A stretch of 64,000 bases of DNA, taken from the NCBI GenBank assembly GCA_050874585.1, contig JBNMKZ010000004.1, forward strand, positions 7 to 64,006, in the 5' to 3' direction. Under the pieces are notes generated by a model. The model saw nothing but the letters and a program-made list of their open reading frames with translations, made no database searches and was not told the DNA's origin. The stretch's first letter is position 1, and each line of letters starts with the position of its first letter. This document shows positions 56,677 through 64,000 of the stretch, piece after piece. A program made the position numbers and the translations under genes. Source of the DNA: Verrucomicrobiota bacterium (GTDB lineage: Bacteria; Verrucomicrobiota; Kiritimatiellia; RFP12; UBA1067).

Positions 56677-57102
56677 CTAACGTCGGTTGACGCGGTCGCC
56701 CTTGAGCCGCCAGCTGAAGTCGCTCGTCGAAAGGTCCAACTTGGCAAGGGGGCTGACGCGCACGACAAGCTTGTTCTTGCTCGACAATCTCCCATCCTTT
56801 TCGACCGACCCCTTCAGAAACGGCTGGAGGCGAAGGTAGCCATCCAGATTGACGGCGTTTCCCTTTTCAAGGTGCTCCCGGACCAGGCCCATCACGCACT
56901 CAAACTGGGACTTCAAGAACTCCTCGCTCCCCATGGTGGCACCCCTATCCTTCGCACCCTTGATCAGCTCGTTGAACCCGACGGTCTTCTGCCCCAGTAT
57001 CCTCGGCGTATGCGTCACGGTCTTCCGAATCGGATGCTTGAAGTCGACAACCTGGTACTCCAGGACCTTCCTGTTGGCATACACCTCCAGTTTCTTGCTC
57101 AT
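56677..57102 (-). CDS. HU-like (Bacteroidota-type HU-HIG/DUF4469-like) DNA-binding protein
   Basis: The internal start at 57102 is preceded by the SD aaggag. 141 aa, MSKKLEVYANRKVLEYQVVDF...; the pattern resembles histone-like HU-HIG proteins as I recall them. Confidence 0.6.
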   Translation of the reverse strand: MSKKLEVYANRKVLEYQVVDFKHPIRKTVTHTPRILGQKTVGFNELIKGAKDRGATMGSEEFLKSQFECVMGLVREHLEKGNAVNLDGYLRLQPFLKGSVEKDGRLSSKNKLVVRVSPLAKLDLSTSDFSWRLKGDRVNRR

Positions 57103-57157
57103 GAACCCGAACTCCTTTCTTCGCAAATCCAGTCCCTCATCAACCGGAATGGGAGGA

Positions 57158-57166
57158 ATTGTACCA
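57158..57166 (-). promoter_or_regulatory. extended -10 TGGTACAAT for the HU-like gene
   Basis: Read on the minus strand, about 55 nt upstream of the start at 57102. Confidence 0.5.
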
Positions 57167-57284
57167 TTTCGTACGCATGGACCGCAAGCGGATTCCACGG
57201 TCGCGGCGCGGCAAAAGTACAGGAGCGCGGCGAAATGTCCACAGGAGATAGTGCGATCCTGTACATCAGACGAGCGAGTCCTAC

Positions 57285-57616
57285 TCATGAATGCGGGTCA
57301 TTCCTCTCATGCAAAAGGGCAAGACATCTCATGAACAAGGGTCAACCATGTCACAACGAAGGGCGGAGATGTACAGGACAAAGGGAAAGTACCATGCTAC
57401 TTTTGATAAAGCACCATGCTGGTTTGTCCAAACCACCATGCTACTTTTCACAAACCAGCATGGTGGTTTCCGCTTGTCATAAGATCCCTGACCCTTCTTC
57501 ATGAGATGTCCGACCCTTCTTCATGAGATGTCTTGCCCTTTTGTATGACAGGAATTTCACCAAATCAAGGGAGGAATTGCCCGTCGTCATGAGATTGTTT
57601 GGCCCGTTTCTTAGGA
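57285..57616. repeat. dyad-symmetric array of about fifteen 22-bp-phased units (array III)
   Basis: Left units TCAnnAnnAAGGGnnA start at 57285, 57307, 57329, 57351 and 57372. Four 7-4-7 palindromes with a CATG centre start at 57386, 57408, 57430 and 57452. Inverted copies of the left units start at 57489, 57511, 57533 and 57577. The symmetry axis is at 57427.5. Confidence 0.9.
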
Positions 57617-57617
57617 A

Positions 57618-57898
57618 TGCCGCGGGATGCCTGTGGTCGGCCTTGTCCCTCCTCTCGGGCGAGGGGGTGAGCGCGAAGTGTCGCGAGTGAGGTCTTCCAC
57701 GGGGCGCCACCGTGAGAGTTGTCTTGTCCGAAACCAGTGATAACCACCGAGGCTGGACAGGCTAAGTAAACTTTTGTTGCCCAGGCGCGAAAGGTGAGCG
57801 CAACCGTGGAAGCCGAGACCGAGCGACAGCTTCGCGCAAGCCCCCGAGCAAGCGGTTCCTGCGGGGCAGAACACGAAAACCTTCAGTGAATTTCAGTG
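57618..57898 (+). repeat. long repeat copy A (candidate structured RNA or mobile repeat)
   Basis: 57618-57867 matches 58173-58422 with 2 mismatches in 250 nt. The shared tail CTTCAGTGAATTTCAGTG ends at 57898. Confidence 0.9.
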
Positions 57899-58126
57899 TC
57901 GGTCGATAGACCGTTCAGTGTGTTCTGTGGCAGAAAACAAGCACTCCCTCCACCCACGCCGTCGGATCATCCGTCCCTTCGGGACTGCGAACCCCTCAGT
58001 TCGCCGTCGCCGCGCCCCACCCGCTCCTCCCTCCGCCCGCTCGTGGGCCTGTCCGGGGCTTCGCGAACGGCAGTCGCATGGACGGGGAATGGCACATTCG
58101 GCCCTGCTTGGGAGGCCGGGGAAAAG

Positions 58127-58495
58127 CCACACCGCGCAGGCGTTCAGAAGGCGCAAGCGCGGCAAAACCATCTGCCGCGGGATGCCTGTGGTCGGCCTTG
58201 TCCCTCCTCTCGGGCGAGGGGGTGAGCGCGAAGTGTCGCGAGTGAGGTCTTCCACGGGGCGCCACCGTGAGAGTTGTCCTGTCCGAAACCAGTGATAACC
58301 ACCGAGGCTGGACAGGCTAAGTAAACTTTTGTTGCCCAAGCGCGAAAGGTGAGCGCAACCGTGGAAGCCGAGACCGAGCGACAGCTTCGCGCAAGCCCCC
58401 GAGCAAGCGGTTCCTGCGGGGCTGACACGAAAATTCACGAAAGCCGCCTGACGGCGGACACGAAACCGCCGCGCCCTCTTCAGTGAATTTCAGTG
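58127..58495 (+). repeat. long repeat copy B with a 5' extension shared with copy C
   Basis: The 5' extension CCACACCGCGCAGGCGT...CGCGGCA...TGCCGCG matches 61040-61121. The core is 99% identical to A. There is a 3' insertion relative to A. Confidence 0.9.
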
Positions 58496-58831
58496 ACCGC
58501 CGCTAGGCATGGTAAACTCCAGGGGTAAAAATGGGTGTAGATTGCGAAGTAAGTGGACAGGGGCGACGGTAGGTCGGCGAGGGTCGCTTGTCCCCATGTC
58601 TTGAAGGCACGGATTTGCCTTGGAAGCCAAGACTCCACTGTGGGGCCTGCGTGTCCCGCGCGGAGTCCGTTCATTGGAGATTCCCCAATTTTTGAGGCAA
58701 GAAAATCGCCGCGCCCTTGAAAACAAAGGGTGAAGTGGCGATTTCCGTTTTGCGCCAAGTGAAAATCCGACAATAGGAGCACCGAGGCGTTCCGTGTCGA
58801 GACGCAGAAATTGGCCGTTGCGAGGGGTTCG

Positions 58832-60112
58832 TCATCCCGTGTTCATTCCGAAGAATGCGAAGAGCGACGCCCCGTCCCTCTTCTCGGCTTCCTCGGGGTC
58901 GAACCCGCGCCACCTGCGGCCTCTTTTCAGGATGTCGCTCGCTCCGTCCGCGATGGCGTAGAAGTGGAATTCCGGCACGTCGTGTATCCTGAACGACATG
59001 CGCGCGACGCTTCTTGCGATGACGTCGTGCCTCTCCGAGTTCCCGCTCCATGCCATGCTGAAGTAGACTGTAGTCAGGACGATCGCGGCCAGGGCCTTGA
59101 TCTTGGCGTACCTGAACAGGCGCATGTCCTCGAGGCTGTAGGACTGCTTGACGTGGCGGATGGTGTCCTCGACCCTCCAGCGGGTGATGTATCCCTCCAC
59201 GACCTGCCAGAGCGCCTCGCGCGTCGTTGTCTTCGCGAGGGTCGTCAGCAGCATCATCGGCTTCTGCCCGAACCCCCTCACGACGACCATGTGCAGGAGC
59301 CTGTCGGGGATGTCGGGAAGCCGCACGGGCACGGCGCCGAACTCGATCGTCACGCGACGCTCCTTCCCGTGGTGGTCGAACGTCACGACCTCCCTGTAGC
59401 GCATCCGGCACTCCCAGGCGAGTTCGCCGCACATGACGTTGCGCTTCCAGCTGCGCACGTACCTTTCCTTGAGTCGGACGATGAAATCCAGCCCTTTCCC
59501 GAGGAAATGGCGGTAGAACTCGATGTTGTCTCCGCCACGGTCGTACACGAATATCCCCCGCCTCTTCGTGTGCCTGGTGATTCCATCCACGATGGGCTTC
59601 ACCTCCTCGTTCTCGCTGACGAACCCCGGCGAGTCCGCGGACCACAGCCTGAAGTGCAGCGGAATCGGCCTGCGGCCGCCTGATTCGCGGGCTACGGCCA
59701 TGCAGCCCCAGAAGCCGAGGTTGTCGCCCACCTCGCCCTTGCTCCCGTCCCAGACCTTGGCGAGGTACTCCATCTTCTTCGCGTAGGGCTTCTGCACGTC
59801 GGACGGGTCCAGGATGATGAGCGCGTTCCTGTGGACCCTCCTGGCGCCCTCGGAGGCGATGAGGCGGTGCAGCCCCGCCTCCAGCCCGTCCGACGAGAGC
59901 ATCCGGCTGAGCCTGTCCTCGACCTTTTTCGGGGTGGTTTCCTCCTTCAGCGCGCGGACCACGGACGAGAGCTTCACGTCCTTCTCCGCCATGATCCCGT
60001 AGACCATGTCGCCTATGAAACGGGCGACCGGCTTGTGGAAATGGGGGGAAATCCTCCCCAGAAAAGATTCAAGTTGCCCGAGCAGTTTCGCCGCAATTGT
60101 GGTATCATGCAT
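58832..60112 (-). CDS. IS4-family DDE transposase
   Basis: 426 aa, with YDRGGD and the IS4 Y-x2-R-x3-E-x6-K signature (YITRWRVEDTIRHVK). Confidence 0.9.
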   Translation of the reverse strand: MHDTTIAAKLLGQLESFLGRISPHFHKPVARFIGDMVYGIMAEKDVKLSSVVRALKEETTPKKVEDRLSRMLSSDGLEAGLHRLIASEGARRVHRNALIILDPSDVQKPYAKKMEYLAKVWDGSKGEVGDNLGFWGCMAVARESGGRRPIPLHFRLWSADSPGFVSENEEVKPIVDGITRHTKRRGIFVYDRGGDNIEFYRHFLGKGLDFIVRLKERYVRSWKRNVMCGELAWECRMRYREVVTFDHHGKERRVTIEFGAVPVRLPDIPDRLLHMVVVRGFGQKPMMLLTTLAKTTTREALWQVVEGYITRWRVEDTIRHVKQSYSLEDMRLFRYAKIKALAAIVLTTVYFSMAWSGNSERHDVIARSVARMSFRIHDVPEFHFYAIADGASDILKRGRRWRGFDPEEAEKRDGASLFAFFGMNTG

Positions 60113-60149
60113 GGCGTCGCCTTTCCTGTTTGGTGTTTAGCACTTCGGC

Positions 60150-60158
60150 ATTATACCG
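60150..60158 (-). promoter_or_regulatory. -10 CGGTATAAT for the transposase, within a CTTCGG/CCGAAG palindrome
   Basis: Read on the minus strand, about 38 nt upstream of the start at 60112. Confidence 0.5.
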
Positions 60159-60273
60159 AAGATCGAACTCGAAAGGCGACTCTCTTTCCCAAAAATCGGC
60201 TCATAACCGCGCAGACCGTCGCAACGTCTTGCCAGCGAAGAAAAATGGGGAACCTCCAAAAGCGGATACCCCG

Positions 60274-60303
60274 TTGACATCGGAGAGGCGTTTTTGGTAT
60301 CAT
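60274..60303 (+). promoter_or_regulatory. promoter for tRNA-Met: TTGACA, 18-bp spacer (its last 3 nt are the TGG of the extended -10), TATCAT
   Basis: -35 at 60274-60279 and extended -10 TGGTATCAT at 60295-60303. It lies just outside the IS right end. Confidence 0.6.
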
Positions 60304-60322
60304 ATACGCGTTCACCTTTATT

Positions 60323-60398
60323 GGCGAGATAGCTCAGTTGGTAGAGCGCAGGACTCATAAGCCTAAGGTCAAGGGTTCGATCCCCTTTCTCGCCACCA
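60323..60398 (+). tRNA. tRNA with CAU anticodon (Met, or Ile2 if lysidinylated), encoded CCA, weak anticodon stem
   Basis: Acceptor GGCGAGA/TCTCGCC, D arm GCTC/GAGC, T arm AAGGG-TTCGATC-CCCTT, loop CTCATAA. The anticodon stem has C27-A43 and A31-G39 mismatches. Confidence 0.8.
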
Positions 60399-60434
60399 TT
60401 CTTCACAATCCCTCCCAACGAAGAACTGCACAGT

Positions 60435-60887
60435 ATGAGAATCCTTTTTTGCTGTCACGGCAACATCTGCCGCTCACCCATGGCCGAATTCGTCATGAAG
60501 GAACTGGCCAGAAAAGCCGGGCGCACGGACCTTGTCATCGAATCCGCAGCCCTTCATACGGACGAAATTGGCAATGACATCCATCCCGGCACGCGTGCCG
60601 AACTGCTGAAGCACGGCATTCCCTTTGCACCCCGTGCCGCCTGGCAGCTGACGGCCTCGAAGGCCAAGTCATACGACCTTCTCATTGGCATGGACGACTA
60701 CAACATGGCGGACCTTCGGAGACTGGTCGAGCCTGCCGCGCGCGGCAAAATTCATCGTCTCCTTGCGTACGCAGGGCTTGACCGCGCCATCGCCGATCCG
60801 TGGTACACGGGGGACTTCGACGCGACCTATCGCGACGTTCTCCTCGGTTGCACGGCTCTCCTCAAGGAGATCGCCGCGCCCGCCTGA
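60435..60887 (+). CDS. low-molecular-weight protein-tyrosine phosphatase
   Basis: CHGNICRS (C-X5-R-S) P-loop at residues 7-14 and a DP motif (DPWY). Confidence 0.9.
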   Translation: MRILFCCHGNICRSPMAEFVMKELARKAGRTDLVIESAALHTDEIGNDIHPGTRAELLKHGIPFAPRAAWQLTASKAKSYDLLIGMDDYNMADLRRLVEPAARGKIHRLLAYAGLDRAIADPWYTGDFDATYRDVLLGCTALLKEIAAPA

Positions 60888-60896
60888 GGACGGCCC

Positions 60897-60920
60897 GTCC
60901 CTCTCTCGGGCGAGGGGGTG
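60897..60920 (+). repeat. solo copy of the hairpin module CCCTC-TCTCGGGC-GAGGGGG from the long repeat
   Basis: GTCCCTCTCTCGGGCGAGGGGGTG begins 10 nt after the phosphatase stop. The same module lies inside copies A, B and C. Confidence 0.7.
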
Positions 60921-61039
60921 CGGCACACGGGAAGGGTCGGTTTGAGCCGGCCGAGGCCTGCGGGCGAACCACGGAAAGGCGAAGGGTGGTTTTTAGCCGC
61001 AAGGGACGCAAAGGTCGCAGAGAGTGGGGGAGAGAGGCC

Positions 61040-61353
61040 CCACCGCGCAGGCGTGTGAAGGCGCGAGCGCGGCAGTTTGGGTGGCCTGCCGGACGGCAGG
61101 CCGGCAAGACCATTTGCCGCGTTTTGGCCTGTGGTCAGCCTGTTCCTTCTCTCGGGCGAGGGGGTGCGCGCGAAGTGTCGCGAGTGAGGTCTTCCGCGGG
61201 GCGCCACCGTAGGAGTTGTTTCGTCCGAAACCAGCCGTCTTGTCGAGGCTGGACAGGCTAAGTAAACTTTTGTTGCCCAGGCGCGAGAGGTGAGCGCAAC
61301 CGTGGAAGCCGAGACCGAGCGACAGCTTCGCGCAAACACACGAGCAAGCGGTT
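61040..61353 (+). repeat. long repeat copy C (diverged, roughly 87% identical to A in the core)
   Basis: Collinear with B, including the 5' extension. The 3' half GGCTGGACAGGCTAAGTAAAC...CAGCTTCGCGCAA is nearly identical. It ends directly at a TGATATAAT promoter. Confidence 0.9.
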
Positions 61354-61356
61354 TTA

Positions 61357-61365
61357 TGATATAAT
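61357..61365 (+). promoter_or_regulatory. extended -10 TGATATAAT immediately after repeat copy C
   Basis: Same junction geometry as the proS promoter. Its transcript would run through the poly-C tract toward the 61729 operon. Confidence 0.5.
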
Positions 61366-61483
61366 ATGCGCCGAAAGCGAGAATTAGCGGAGTTTGTGAT
61401 GGAGTCGGCGATGACTGAGATTCGCCCGAGGTGGCGTATAAGCGCACGAAACGGTGCGCCTGCGACTCCGTTTGCTAAGTTTA

Positions 61484-61500
61484 CCCCCCCCCCCCCCCCC
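61484..61500 (+). repeat. homopolymeric tract of 17 C
   Basis: Counted directly and cross-checked against the track translation (PPPPPP). Confidence 0.95.
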
Positions 61501-61728
61501 AGTAACAGGCGCGTGTGACGGGTGGCTGAGCCACTTCTTGCCTTTTGGACTGCGGATCCTCAGGATTCTCCGTACGGTTGCCCATCTGGCACATTTTTCC
61601 TTTTATTTCCTCTCGGGGCACATAGTTGTGCCCAGGTTGGAGTTTGTACGGCAAAGGCATGCCACTTCATTTTCCCGCGTGGGCGGCGGCCTTGGAGGTT
61701 GTCGCGGGAGAAGGAATGAAAGGGGTTG

Positions 61729-62172
61729 ATGATGCACGATGATATGCGATTGAAATATATGGTGGCCAAGGGACTTGGATGCCTCAATGTTCCATGTCTT
61801 GAAGCGTGCAATGAGAGTTGTCCTTGCGAGAAACTGAAGAATTTTGTTAAGGAGGAATCTAAGAAACCTTCTGCAAATACTGCCTCTCTTGAACTTGAAT
61901 GGGTGCATGTTCCTACATGGGAAAGTGTTGGCGTTCGGTTGAAGCGCGCGATTTCGATTGGGGTTGTGCTGGGGTTGGGGATACTTTTGGGTGCTGGGGT
62001 GGTGAAGGGATGTTGTTCAAATGAGAGAGAGATTAAGGTATCTTTGTCTAAAGACGGATACCAAATTGAGCGCCGTTTTGAATCGATAGAAGATTTTGAG
62101 AAGATCGGGACTAATGACCTTCGGCGTGTCATGAACGCGCTTGAGAGCCTTCACAAATCAGGTAATAACTGA
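61729..62172 (+). CDS. hypothetical single-pass membrane protein with a Cys-rich N-terminus
   Basis: SD gaaagggg upstream. N-terminal CLNVPCLEACNESCPC and TM segment AISIGVVLGLGILLGAGVV. Lower GC than the core genes. Confidence 0.55.
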   Translation: MMHDDMRLKYMVAKGLGCLNVPCLEACNESCPCEKLKNFVKEESKKPSANTASLELEWVHVPTWESVGVRLKRAISIGVVLGLGILLGAGVVKGCCSNEREIKVSLSKDGYQIERRFESIEDFEKIGTNDLRRVMNALESLHKSGNN

Positions 62173-62202
62173 GTTTAGAGGGCCTTTCCAAGGATACTGA
62201 AG

Positions 62203-62883
62203 ATGCAATGCGAAAAAGAGCAGCAGATTACTCCTCGCGCCATCTATGAGTCATTTTGGAAATGTCGCGATCTTGAAATCAACATGCTGTGGACGCGGCT
62301 GACTTTGTTGGGCGCGTTCATGGGCTTGACCTATGCCGGATATGGTACGCTGATTCTGAAAAGCGTCGACGGCATTGGAAATTGGGATGTCTTTCATCTT
62401 GTGGCCATTGGCGCGAGTAGCTTTGGTTTGCTCTTTTCGATTCTGTGGACGACGACCGCCAAGGGGTCGAAAGCGTGGTTTGAGCGGTATGAGGCGATGA
62501 TTGCCTATTTCCAGGAAACATACAAAGACTTGGGTCTCTTTGCGAGAACGGCGGGCGAGGATCTGGTTCTCTCGTATCTTGACGATGGCAATCGAAACGT
62601 CGTCCGGCGGTTGAGGCCCCTTGACACCGATTTGTTTTCGCAGTATGCCGGCGCCTATTCGGTTTCAAAAATCCCAATCGTCATGGGGCAGGTTTCGATT
62701 GTGGCGTGGGGCGTCATCGGAATCGTCCATGCGGTTGCCTGCGTGATCGGGCGGCGCGGCATTCTCGATTTCGTCCAGAATGTTCATGTCGGGGCAATTG
62801 CCGTGGCAATGGTTGTTGTGACGGCCATCAGTGCCTGCCTCGTCTGCTCCTGTGTCGGGAGCAGCGCTTTGAAGGGGAAGTGA
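62203..62883 (+). CDS. hypothetical 4-TM membrane protein
   Basis: 226 aa. An N-terminal amphipathic region, then a TM hairpin (LWTRLTLLGAFMGLTYAGYG / VFHLVAIGASSFGLLFSILW), a soluble linker and two more TM helices. Confidence 0.65.
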   Translation: MQCEKEQQITPRAIYESFWKCRDLEINMLWTRLTLLGAFMGLTYAGYGTLILKSVDGIGNWDVFHLVAIGASSFGLLFSILWTTTAKGSKAWFERYEAMIAYFQETYKDLGLFARTAGEDLVLSYLDDGNRNVVRRLRPLDTDLFSQYAGAYSVSKIPIVMGQVSIVAWGVIGIVHAVACVIGRRGILDFVQNVHVGAIAVAMVVVTAISACLVCSCVGSSALKGK

Positions 62884-62885
62884 AC

Positions 62886-63140
62886 ATGATGCGAGTTCCG
62901 GAACATATCGTTTCATTCGGACAGAGCGCATCGGGCGATTCTGGGGGGGCGGTGCGAAAACTTTTTTATTCCCCGCGTCACTTTTCCGTTCCGAGAAGGG
63001 AATATGCAGTAGAGGATATGGAAGACTCAATCTACAAAAAATGCGGACTCGCCCTCAACTGCATTCCAATGTCCGCAGAAATTGAGTTGGCTGAATATTG
63101 CTTCGGCGTGACAAAGGAAGAATCCCATTTGATTCGTTAA
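62886..63140 (+). CDS. hypothetical small soluble protein (84 aa)
   Basis: The internal ATG 62886 lies 2 nt after the upstream stop. No recognisable motifs. Confidence 0.45.
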   Translation: MMRVPEHIVSFGQSASGDSGGAVRKLFYSPRHFSVPRREYAVEDMEDSIYKKCGLALNCIPMSAEIELAEYCFGVTKEESHLIR

Positions 63141-63225
63141 TTCTGCAAAAACAAGCGATGTATAGATTCGCCCTTGTCTGGTCGCTTGCAAAATACATAA
63201 GGGAAACAGCATAAAGGAAGTCGCT

Positions 63226-64000
63226 ATGGTTAAAGAAACAACAATGGCAGAAGAAGAAGTAGGTGCTGCCATCACGCAAGGTGGAAACCCTGTAAATAAT
63301 AGCAAAGTTGATCTTACCCCAAGACTTGTTAAGGAACCGGCGGCAATTGCAAAACTCTGGGAGAAAATTGATGTCCGCCGGGGATCCTTTGAGATTCCGC
63401 GCCTGCGAAAGGACGGGTTCGTAGAGATGAACCTTGCCGGAACTGGAATTGAGAAGGCCATGTATGCACTTGGCAAGCCAGGGATTAAAGATATTATCAG
63501 TGTAGAGGCGATGGTATTCCCATGTGTTTCCATAGCCCAGAAGGTCGCTGCTGATCTTCGGTGGTATGAAAGGCTGAGATTCAAACCAAAGGATCGAACA
63601 GATTTGATTCCGCTAGCCAAAAATCAAAGGGATTATCGCGATCCGTGGTCAGATGGTAAATTCCCATCTTTTGAAGGCAAGACCTCTGGTAGTGAAATAA
63701 TTCCGCAATCATGTGTTTTGGATGATTGCCCTGCTTGCGATGGCGAGGGTACTAAACTTGGTAAGGTCTTTCAGGGACAAAAAGACAGAGGTTGGATTAC
63801 GTGTCGGCACTGTGATGGTACTGGGAAAGAAGGTGCATTGCTTTGCGATCATTGTCAGGGCCACGGAGGTTGGTATTCTCGTAGTCAAGTCAACCAGTAT
63901 GCCACGCAGCAGGTAAAGTGCGACAAATGCGATGGCTCCGGGAAGTTGCTGGCGGTGTTAAAGGCTCACAAGCAGGTGGATACGTATGAGAAGTTCGATT
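63226..64000 (+). CDS. hypothetical protein with four DnaJ-type CxxCxGxG zinc-finger repeats; 3' end beyond the window
   Basis: Not in the ORF track because no stop occurs within the window. SD aaaggaag precedes ATG 63226. Hand translation gives 258 codons without a stop, with CPACDGEG, CRHCDGTG, CDHCQGHG and CDKCDGSG at 63727-63941. Confidence 0.7.
   Translation, partial: MVKETTMAEEEVGAAITQGGNPVNNSKVDLTPRLVKEPAAIAKLWEKIDVRRGSFEIPRLRKDGFVEMNLAGTGIEKAMYALGKPGIKDIISVEAMVFPCVSIAQKVAADLRWYERLRFKPKDRTDLIPLAKNQRDYRDPWSDGKFPSFEGKTSGSEIIPQSCVLDDCPACDGEGTKLGKVFQGQKDRGWITCRHCDGTGKEGALLCDHCQGHGGWYSRSQVNQYATQQVKCDKCDGSGKLLAVLKAHKQVDTYEKFD

Follow-up and report, generated by a model that had tools for sequence, protein, structure and literature searches.

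In a 64,000-nt stretch of DNA from a Verrucomicrobiota bacterium of the class Kiritimatiellia (contig JBNMKZ010000004.1; hereafter the window), two nearly identical repeats lie in tandem, and a third copy lies downstream of them. These repeats are non-coding, and the fold that they share is, judged by the covariation among their relatives, real and under selection. We prefer, tentatively and at somewhat less than even confidence, the explanation that they belong to a modular element, not described before, which occurs in many copies in Kiritimatiellia of the gut and rumen and in which a structured-RNA module is carried on an intergenic cassette that duplicates and bears a promoter. The element would represent a new family among known kinds, i.e., the bacterial structured non-coding repeats. 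A literature search found no description of such an element in Kiritimatiellia.

A repeat search of the window detected a direct repeat of 253 nt at 57618–57870 (copy A) and 58173–58425 (copy B), with 99% identity and a distance of 555 nt from start to start. The original prediction, made from the sequence of the region, had proposed a near-identical tandem pair of 250 nt that belongs to a three-copy family and shares a tail, and these points were confirmed. Copies A and B differ at only two of the 253 positions (T57724/C58279 and G57786/A58341). The third copy, C, was detected at 61141–61353 with 91–96% identity to A and B, and the tail CTTCAGTGAATTTCAGTG occurs only at 57881–57898 and 58478–58495, that is, after A and B. 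The proposed unit size of 250 nt was too short, because the family unit is longer: the alignment of the three copies showed an additional 5' module of 60–100 nt upstream, which is common to B and C and is not present in A. Copy A (57618–57870, + strand) is therefore a 5'-truncated unit, with the core at 57671–57838 and a covariance model score of 192.4 bits. Copy B is a full unit (58113–58425, + strand; 5' module at 58113–58172, core at 58226–58393, 192.1 bits), and so is copy C, whose 5' module carries a 40-nt insert and whose extent was placed at about 61029–61358 on the + strand by nhmmer and the covariance model (core at 61168–61334, 173.7 bits). The search of the 64-kb window with the covariance model gave no copies beyond A, B and C, all of them on the + strand.

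The repeats were considered to be non-coding from three observations: 1-nt insertions or deletions separate A and B from C, none of the − strand open reading frames (ORFs) overlying the repeats has a Pfam domain, and the variable columns show no 3-base periodicity (16/12/16 by codon position). In addition, the database 'homologues' of the overlying ORFs are domain-less and lie in different frames. A search with the + strand frames yielded only six domain-less ORFs, so that on its own strand the element is free of any genuine protein ORF. By the indels, the flat codon-position variation and the domain-less homologues in different frames, a protein-coding gene or pseudogene was ruled out, in agreement with the earlier suggestion that coding is unlikely. 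To match the repeats with known RNAs, Rfam 15 was searched. The whole window gave only four tRNAs at the gathering score, the region 57200–61700 gave only chance matches at E ≤ 10, and seven related loci gave nothing on the element. With 341 nt of copy B alone, the best scores were 13.7 bits for Twister-sister (cut-off, 34) and 11.9 bits for sR23, located in the tail and not in the core; no HEARO or IS605-orfB match was obtained at E = 10. The original prediction could not match the repeats by eye to RNase P, tmRNA, SRP, 6S or group II intron domain V, in agreement with the Rfam result.

Relatives of the element were found by using the translations of two open − strand frames of copy A as queries against a protein collection. 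The search gave 15 'proteins' without a domain. They are spurious, having been called as ORFs on DNA homologous to the repeat, and the contigs carrying them provided the loci designated L023–L034 and L039. The motif AACCAGTGATARYCRCCGAGGC, taken from those loci, detected four more loci in JGI metagenomes, three of which are much more diverged. The canonical copies are 72–89% identical to those of the window, and their hosts are other gut and rumen Kiritimatiellia contigs. No copy was detected in viral contigs (searched with two patterns), phage records or plasmid records (BLAST), and the family appears, as far as found, to be restricted to Kiritimatiellia. By its ProS, the organism of the window belongs to the Kiritimatiellia. 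The nearest sequenced relatives by this protein (85% identity) are common in gut metagenomes, but proS has other surroundings in them, and no copy is present there. The Logan contig of the exact species ends at about window position 57107, and contigs frequently end at or close to the element, as is expected of a repeat. A scan of a genome collection with the 19-mer GCTAAGTAAACTTTTGTTG from the element interior gave 11 loci, none of which was the element: ten were antisense to the 23S rRNA of Patescibacteria, and one was a chance match on a Brevefilum contig. This 19-mer is the antisense of a 23S rRNA segment of Patescibacteria/Levyibacteriota (L001–L010), and the similarity stops there; the ten loci reflect a single chance match that is repeated because the gene is conserved.

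The core fold of the family, with 168 positions (approximately 170 nt), was analysed with 12 distinct cores. RNAalifold gave a structure of 45 pairs, of which 22 show compensatory double changes. When the pairs were counted over the 12 cores, 89.9% of the cells were paired, as compared with 34–46% when the partners were slid, and 22 pairs had changed on both sides, as compared with 4–9 when slid. None of 500 shuffles reached the observed values. A model-fitted alignment of 18 distinct sequences, which leans toward structure by construction, gave 92.1% pairing cells (33–42% when slid) and double changes in 23 of the 45 pairs. A conserved structure, as the original prediction had suggested, is supported by these counts, i.e., 90–92% of cells pairing and 22–23 pairs with double changes, above the controls. 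Among the helices that it had named, CTTCCACGG (57694–57702) with CCGTGGAAG (57804–57812) and GCGCGAA with TTCGCGC are located as described and have the best covariation support. The local CACGG/CCGTG hairpin, in contrast, competes with a long-range helix and is not the feature conserved in the diverged members. The T/C difference between A and B, which had been regarded as a change within a helix, does pair in the window copies as a helix extension, but this extension lies outside the family consensus.

In the predicted structure, the core forms a long interrupted rod, in which P1, two purine-rich internal loops, P2 and P3 close a branched interior, and the same outer rod was obtained from each member folded singly. 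The interior contains the near-invariant segments GAGUGAGG, CGUARGAG, GCAACCAGUGAUARYCRCCGAGGCA, GGCUAA, UUGUC, GAGAG and CGAGACCGAGC. The long helices exist in three sequence-unrelated versions, since two subfamilies keep the interior and have helices entirely different from the canonical ones. P2 is CUUCCACGG/CCGUGGAAG in the canonical members, UGCGGUGCGA/UCGCCGCCGCA in the variant of L024b, L037 and L030b, and GUUCGUUUUUGC/GCAAAAAACGAAC in L035/L038. Similarly, P1 is GCGCGAAGUGUCGC/GCGACAGCUUCGCGC in the canonical members, GCGCGGCGGUCGC/GCGAGCCGCCGCGC in the same variant, and GGGAGUUCUGC/GCAGAAGCUCCC in L038, where the bulged G is kept. The interior is less well resolved than the rod; it comprises a hairpin with the invariant CAACCA...GUGAUAAC...CCGAGGC, and a 4-bp hairpin with an A/U-rich loop, which shows one covarying pair. 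A kink-turn in the GA-rich internal loops and a CAAC/GUUG pseudoknot were also considered, and were set aside because there was too little variation to judge them.

The two strands are not equivalent in folding. Copy A gave −129.6 kcal/mol on the + strand (z = −4.1) and −115.3 kcal/mol on the − strand (z = −2.7) against shuffled sequence, and the minimum free energy was lower on the + strand in 10 of 11 members, with z-scores that were closer. In the alignment, G·U cells outnumber A·C cells (86 versus 23), the share of cells that can pair is 92% for the + strand as compared with 83% for the − strand, and two pairs are near-invariant wobbles (U·G and G·U). The G·U excess, the invariant wobbles and the lower energies favour folding of the + strand. 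These results point to a + strand that folds as a single strand, and RNA and single-stranded DNA fit them alike.

Outside the core, the element is modular. From 5' to 3', the order is a sharp 5' boundary with a TATA(T)AAGG box (in some loci), a conserved leader, four 22-bp palindromic iterons, a run of CAC[GUA]GAA heptamers, the 5' module with the optional 40-nt hairpin insert, the core, and the conserved 3' edge ...GAGCAAGCGGU. The units occur singly or in tandem arrays, and internal array units run past the 3' edge into a shared spacer. In the window, the tail and spacer between A and B (57871–58112, + strand, read directly from the sequence) contain TTCAGTG/CACGAAA heptamers. This interval had been described as about 230 nt of unique DNA; the gap between the two repeats is actually 302 nt, and parts of it, such as the stretch CACGCCGTCGGATCATCCG.CCCTTCG..., recur in the spacers of the L023 array. 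The tail of B (58426–58495, + strand) contains ACACGAAA twice, a small hairpin and CTTCAGTGAATTTCAGTG. Copy C is preceded by a short array leader (60890–61028, + strand), which starts with the unit fragment CTCTCGGGCGAGGGGGTG at 60903–60920, and the remainder of which is homologous to the CACGGAA-rich leader of L023. Tails, spacers and array leaders contain numerous heptamers of the type CAC[GTA]GAA and of the complement TTC[ACT]GTG (window 57873–57935 and 58427–58495; L023 11580–11290; L034 1440–1230), and the tail CTTCAGTGAATTTCAGTG itself consists of two of them.

Between copy A and the 141-aa ORF upstream of it, a palindrome of 256 bp (57300–57555) has arms of 64 nt with 84% complementarity, and within it are four repeats of 22 bp, all of them imperfect palindromes of the AAAGTACCATGCTACTTT type. 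The same layout of four 22-bp repeats, with other sequences (GATGCCCATC twice and GACGGGCATC twice), was found upstream of the arrays in L023 (about 11700–11590), L024 and L028 (about 10620–10530). The palindrome might act as an operator of the array, or form a hairpin in the RNA transcribed from it.

The composition of the arrays differs between strains. L023 and L024 were read as the same locus, because they share a co-oriented upstream gene (Acyl_transf_3 in L024), the same leader of approximately 620 nt and the same promoter-plus-leader junction. The L023 array consists of a short copy, two full units and a 3' part-unit, and that of L024–L027 consists of one unit and a part-unit, followed by abiEii-abiEi and then another full unit. 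The AbiEi/AbiEii pair (L024 840–2284; also in L025, L026 and L027) is in the opposite orientation to the array and is bracketed by direct repeats of the 3' third of the unit; the orthologous L023 array is without the AbiE genes and one unit. In L026, an extra unit stands in place of the leader of L024. From these differences, the copy number at the locus and the cargo between the units vary between strains. Broken or mosaic copies are common, including an internal deletion (L023c), an insertion with a deletion (L030a), two consecutive 3' ends (L030b), and 5' truncations (window copy A and L026).

In 11 of the 12 contexts, the element and the gene after it have the same orientation; in the remaining one, the element faces the 3' end of abiEii. 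It lies on the G-rich strand in every one of nine loci (GC skew, +0.06 to +0.135). A sigma-70-like promoter is located within about 60 nt 3' of each gene-proximal copy. The extended −10 sequence TGATATAAT directly abuts the 3' edge of copy C (61357–61365, + strand), pointing toward the downstream genes, and the same junction is present in L023 and L024 (L024b). The counterpart TGGTATAAT abuts the 3' edge in L030a, L030b, L034 and L039 (L039m), and the other gene-proximal promoters are TACAAT in L028, TACACT in L039u and TTGACA-17-TAGAAT in L038. In five terminal units, the box TGnTATAAT stands immediately at the conserved 3' edge. In the window, a pattern scan found a near-consensus sigma-70-type promoter for the tRNA-Met gene (TTGACA-18-TATCAT), and TGnTATAAT is therefore reasonable as a promoter in this genome. 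Because TTGTGGTATAATA is identical in L030a, L030b and L039m, ahead of three unrelated genes, the promoter in these cases belongs to the repeat. L039m (L039 2600–2655) is a solo 3' fragment of about 50 nt with the TGGTATAAT promoter and without a core, directly upstream of an epimerase gene. A sigma-54 or extracytoplasmic function (ECF) promoter upstream of the 5' module (TGGAAC-N5-TTGG, in two copies) was also considered by eye, but it lacks the −12 GC and shows no consistent motif, so that it was not retained.

The downstream genes have no common function: tRNA-Met, an 8xMP cassette, a TPR/VWA operon, a ZorD/DpdE-like SNF2 gene, a pseudopilin operon, gyrA, and genes for GH95, an epimerase, Hsp20 and a secreted protein. 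In the 85% ProS relatives (L013–L022), gyrB and gyrA are adjacent; in L034, gyrA is preceded by a composite element and a polyvalent ART-PolyVal/LPD3 gene, and the TGGTATAAT of the element is the only visible gyrA promoter (L034 1–1650), 9 nt before a GGGAG Shine–Dalgarno sequence and the ATG.

From these observations, the structured-RNA explanation may be formulated as follows. The array would be transcribed on the + strand, in other loci from the TATA(T)AAGG box that marks the sharp 5' end of the composite, and each unit would fold to a stable RNA, with the conserved interior as the recognition surface for a common factor. The closing stem with a short U-run would end the RNA just ahead of the outward promoter from which the neighbouring gene is transcribed. 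The cassette would spread and shift its copy number by duplication and by recombination between units, gaining or losing cargo such as AbiEi/AbiEii. The RNA could serve as a trans-acting ribonucleoprotein scaffold, or as a cis-acting boundary or stabiliser element.

Several points weigh against this explanation. The transcript and its ends are predicted from the sequence, the U-run after the closing stem is short and variable (2–6 U), and no promoter was identified for the A/B array of the window itself. A simple leader role fails, because a promoter 3' of the unit would put the unit outside the mRNA of that gene. A role as a simple terminator or insulator does not call for 170 nt around an invariant interior, and a trans-acting RNA has no obvious need of many copies upstream of promoters. 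Most of the sequences come from a few related species, and the covariation partly reflects the three subfamilies rather than many independent events. The G·U asymmetry equally fits a folded single DNA strand, and the mosaic and truncated copies are as expected of selfish repeats. We ranked the readings with the structured-RNA module first and a selfish element second, followed by an attC-like site, a riboswitch-like leader and a functionless repeat.

The large non-coding RNAs ROOL, GOLLD, raiA and OLE resemble the element in size class, covariation, invariant junction nucleotides, the absence of coding potential and the absence of a known function, but none of their models matches, and those RNAs, of which a genome usually has one or a few, show no tie to promoters. 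Likewise, 6S RNA has a long interrupted rod, a large closed internal region, an apical hairpin and a length of about 170–190 nt. Unlike the element, it is present only once or twice; none of the Rfam 6S models matches, and no open-promoter-like bubble is evident in the element. A type III toxin–antitoxin array of the ToxI type was rejected. Such arrays have tandem repeats of approximately 36 nt directly upstream of a ToxN/AbiQ-type toxin, and the units here are 300–555 nt with varied downstream genes including gyrA and tRNA-Met.

Among the alternatives, a selfish mobile element whose fold serves its own spread ranks highest, although we consider it unlikely. It could be a non-autonomous IS200/IS605-type palindrome-associated transposable element (PATE) with an orphan omega-RNA or re-RNA scaffold for a TnpB or IscB encoded at another place in the genome, or an element that moves as a folded single strand of DNA from the lagging-strand template. 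The multi-copy state with mosaic, truncated and tandem copies, the sharp 3' boundary (...GAGCAAGCGGT) with unrelated sequence after it, and the assembly breaks nearby are all consistent with such an element. The copies are also located at junctions with mobile or defence DNA, namely the IS, AbiE, the polyvalent ART/LPD3 protein and the ZorD-like gene. The folded strand is on the G-rich strand in 9 of 9 loci, and IS200/IS605 elements show such a strand bias. The fold with a conserved interior has the size of known guide-RNA scaffolds. HEARO/IscB omega-RNA and TnpB re-RNA are similarly 150–300 nt in length and densely structured, with a conserved interior and variable helices, and such scaffolds share with the element the multi-copy state, orphan copies, one sharp boundary and the strand bias. 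Unlike them, the Kiritimatiellia element has no Rfam match (including HEARO and IS605-orfB at E = 10 for the 341 nt), no iscB, tnpB or tnpA beside the copies and no real ORF overlapping the + strand. It is further distinguished by its tandem arrays and by the outward promoter at the 3' edge. In such systems a variable guide directly abuts the conserved scaffold; here the 3' boundary is sharp and the flank past it varies, but this flank is a promoter, another unit or a shared spacer.

The neighbouring genes do not provide a partner for such an element either. The original prediction had offered an RNA-guided mobile-element component as one possibility, and the neighbour check that it proposed was carried out: none of IscB, TnpB, IS110 and reverse transcriptase lies beside the element in about 12 contexts. 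This possibility thus gained no positive evidence. The gene tables of the other loci contain no transposase, integrase, reverse transcriptase, IscB or TnpB, and the only transposase beside the contexts is that of the unrelated DDE insertion sequence in the window. An omega-RNA beside or overlapping its own iscB or tnpB gene was not supported, no OrfB, HNH or Y1 transposase being found in the same contexts. An IS110 bridge RNA or IS1111 seekRNA was rejected because there is no such recombinase, the only IS being of the DDE_Tnp_1 type, and the internal loops are conserved, not variable. A retron msr/msd, a diversity-generating retroelement (DGR) template and the non-coding RNA of a defence-associated reverse transcriptase (DRT) were rejected because no gene table contains a reverse transcriptase domain. 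No conserved short target motif, terminal inverted repeat or target duplication was found at the composite ends (L023, L028 and L034). These ends, TATATATAAGG... and ...GGTATAAT, are complementary over about 5 nt at most, which also speaks against a miniature inverted-repeat transposable element (MITE). No precise pair of a filled and an empty site was found, and the viral, phage and plasmid collections contain no copies.

Known spreading repeats offer a parallel in some respects. The Correia elements of Neisseria and other mobile promoters are, like the element, intergenic repeats in many copies, through which unrelated genes acquire outward promoters, and they fold into hairpins when transcribed. 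Correia elements have 100–155 bp, 26-bp terminal inverted repeats, a TA duplication, both orientations and no conserved branched interior. The Kiritimatiellia unit, unlike them, is at least 300 nt, with no terminal inverted repeat or target site duplication seen, a strict orientation and strong covariation. The pneumococcal BOX, ERIC and REP/BIME repeats are alike in the modular build, the intergenic location and the potential RNA structure. They are shorter, simple palindromes without invariant internal loops, usually located at gene 3' ends or between the genes of an operon, and not immediately upstream of promoters.

Still less probable is a reading in which the fold is the nucleic-acid component, either RNA or a folded DNA strand, of an unrecognised mobility or recombination system of Kiritimatiellia whose partner protein is encoded elsewhere. 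The promoter-carrying cassette would then copy itself and shuffle cargo such as AbiE or the 8xMP module at the repeats, as a functional analogue of attC or of a guide or bridge RNA with an unrelated architecture.

An attC-like site for cassette exchange, acting as one folded strand with a site-specific recombinase encoded elsewhere, seems improbable. Integron attC arrays are indeed similar, as same-orientation structured repeats between short cassettes, with abortive-infection or toxin–antitoxin cargo and with stem structure conserved more than sequence, and the element likewise has directly oriented repeats with covarying stems on one strand and short ORF-less array units (555 nt in the window and 300–400 nt in L023). 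The AbiEi/AbiEii cassette and one unit lie between direct repeats in L024–L027 and are missing from the orthologous L023 array, and a low-GC 8xMP cassette follows both copy C and the L023 array. However, attC sites are 57–141 nt, and the unit has 2–5 times the length of any of them. There are no R''/R' (RYYYAAC/GTTRRRY) boxes, the bases after GCGGT (CCTG, TTAT, TGCC etc.) not being RRRY, and no integrase was seen in the gene tables. The element also has a strongly conserved interior sequence, housekeeping genes (gyrA, tRNA-Met and leuA) are among its neighbours, and the AbiE difference is equally explained by homologous recombination between the repeats.

A cis-regulatory leader, such as a riboswitch or antiterminator controlling the downstream gene, is very improbable. 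The position just ahead of a gene of the same orientation, in 11 of 12 contexts, and the aptamer-like combination of a conserved interior with variable helices would suit it, and tandem copies are known for some riboswitches. However, the sigma-70-like promoter 3' of every gene-proximal copy would leave the element outside the mRNA in question, the downstream genes share no function, and the internal array units have no gene after them. Least probable of all is a neutral, functionless repeat with structure as a by-product of palindromic DNA and recent duplication. The 99% identity of A and B fits recent duplication or gene conversion, and many copies are broken, but the helices survive complete sequence turnover, the interior loops are invariant, and a one-strand G·U excess is not expected of a DNA palindrome. 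In the tests that were run, the element lacked the defining features of each system with which it was compared.

The surroundings of the repeats in the window are, in order, proS (− strand), an ORF of no known family (− strand), the palindrome with iterons, copies A and B, the IS, tRNA-Met, a low-molecular-weight phosphatase gene, copy C and a low-GC stretch. The ORF upstream of the palindrome (203 aa, 56677–57288, − strand) has a probable start ATG at 57102 preceded by AAAGGAG, which would give a protein of 141 aa; it has no match in Pfam, NCBIfam or PADLOC. The IS element (58674–60259) has its own 19-bp inverted repeats (TTGGAGATTCCCCAATTTT) and encodes a DDE_Tnp_1 transposase of 426 aa (58832–60112, − strand); it is inserted between copy B and the tRNA-Met promoter. 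The position of the repeats beside an IS and a tRNA gene had been pointed out in the original prediction. The IS is a separate insertion, with none beside the element in the other gene tables, and a tRNA gene is present in none of the ten other loci. The IS and tRNA of the window are incidental to the repeat family.

In the region 61357–61545 of the window (L023 10000–9815), the copy C promoter is followed by a stretch of approximately 130 nt, which is 91% conserved in L023 and is also present in L024. It is followed by a C17 tract at 61484–61500 (C16 in L023) and by a hairpin with a U-run at 61520–61545, before the first ORF. The poly-C tract suggests phase variation. A small RNA in the stretch of approximately 180 nt after the promoter was considered and rejected, because there was no excess folding stability (z = 0.1). 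The region 61500–64000 has a GC content of 45–55%, as compared with about 61%, and encodes small proteins without a family match, together with an 8xMP octameric membrane protein (62203–62883) and a protein with a DnaJ-type CXXCXGXG zinc finger, which starts at 63226 and runs off the window end. An 8xMP protein, preceded by small proteins of no family, likewise follows the array in L023 (55–9943). A literature search on 8xMP gave no relevant paper.

Kiritimatiellia are common, little-studied degraders of mucin and polysaccharides in the gut and rumen. The family found here unites the hallmarks of a functional RNA, i.e., an invariant interior and helix turnover, with those of a spreading repeat, i.e., many copies before the promoters of unrelated genes, including that of gyrA. 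Assemblies break at the element and spurious genes are called over it; the annotation of these genomes would benefit from a covariance model. If the RNA is expressed, it would be a new class of large structured RNA, with a partner to be named. If the cassette is mobile, promoters and defence cargo would have in it a means of spreading within the phylum.

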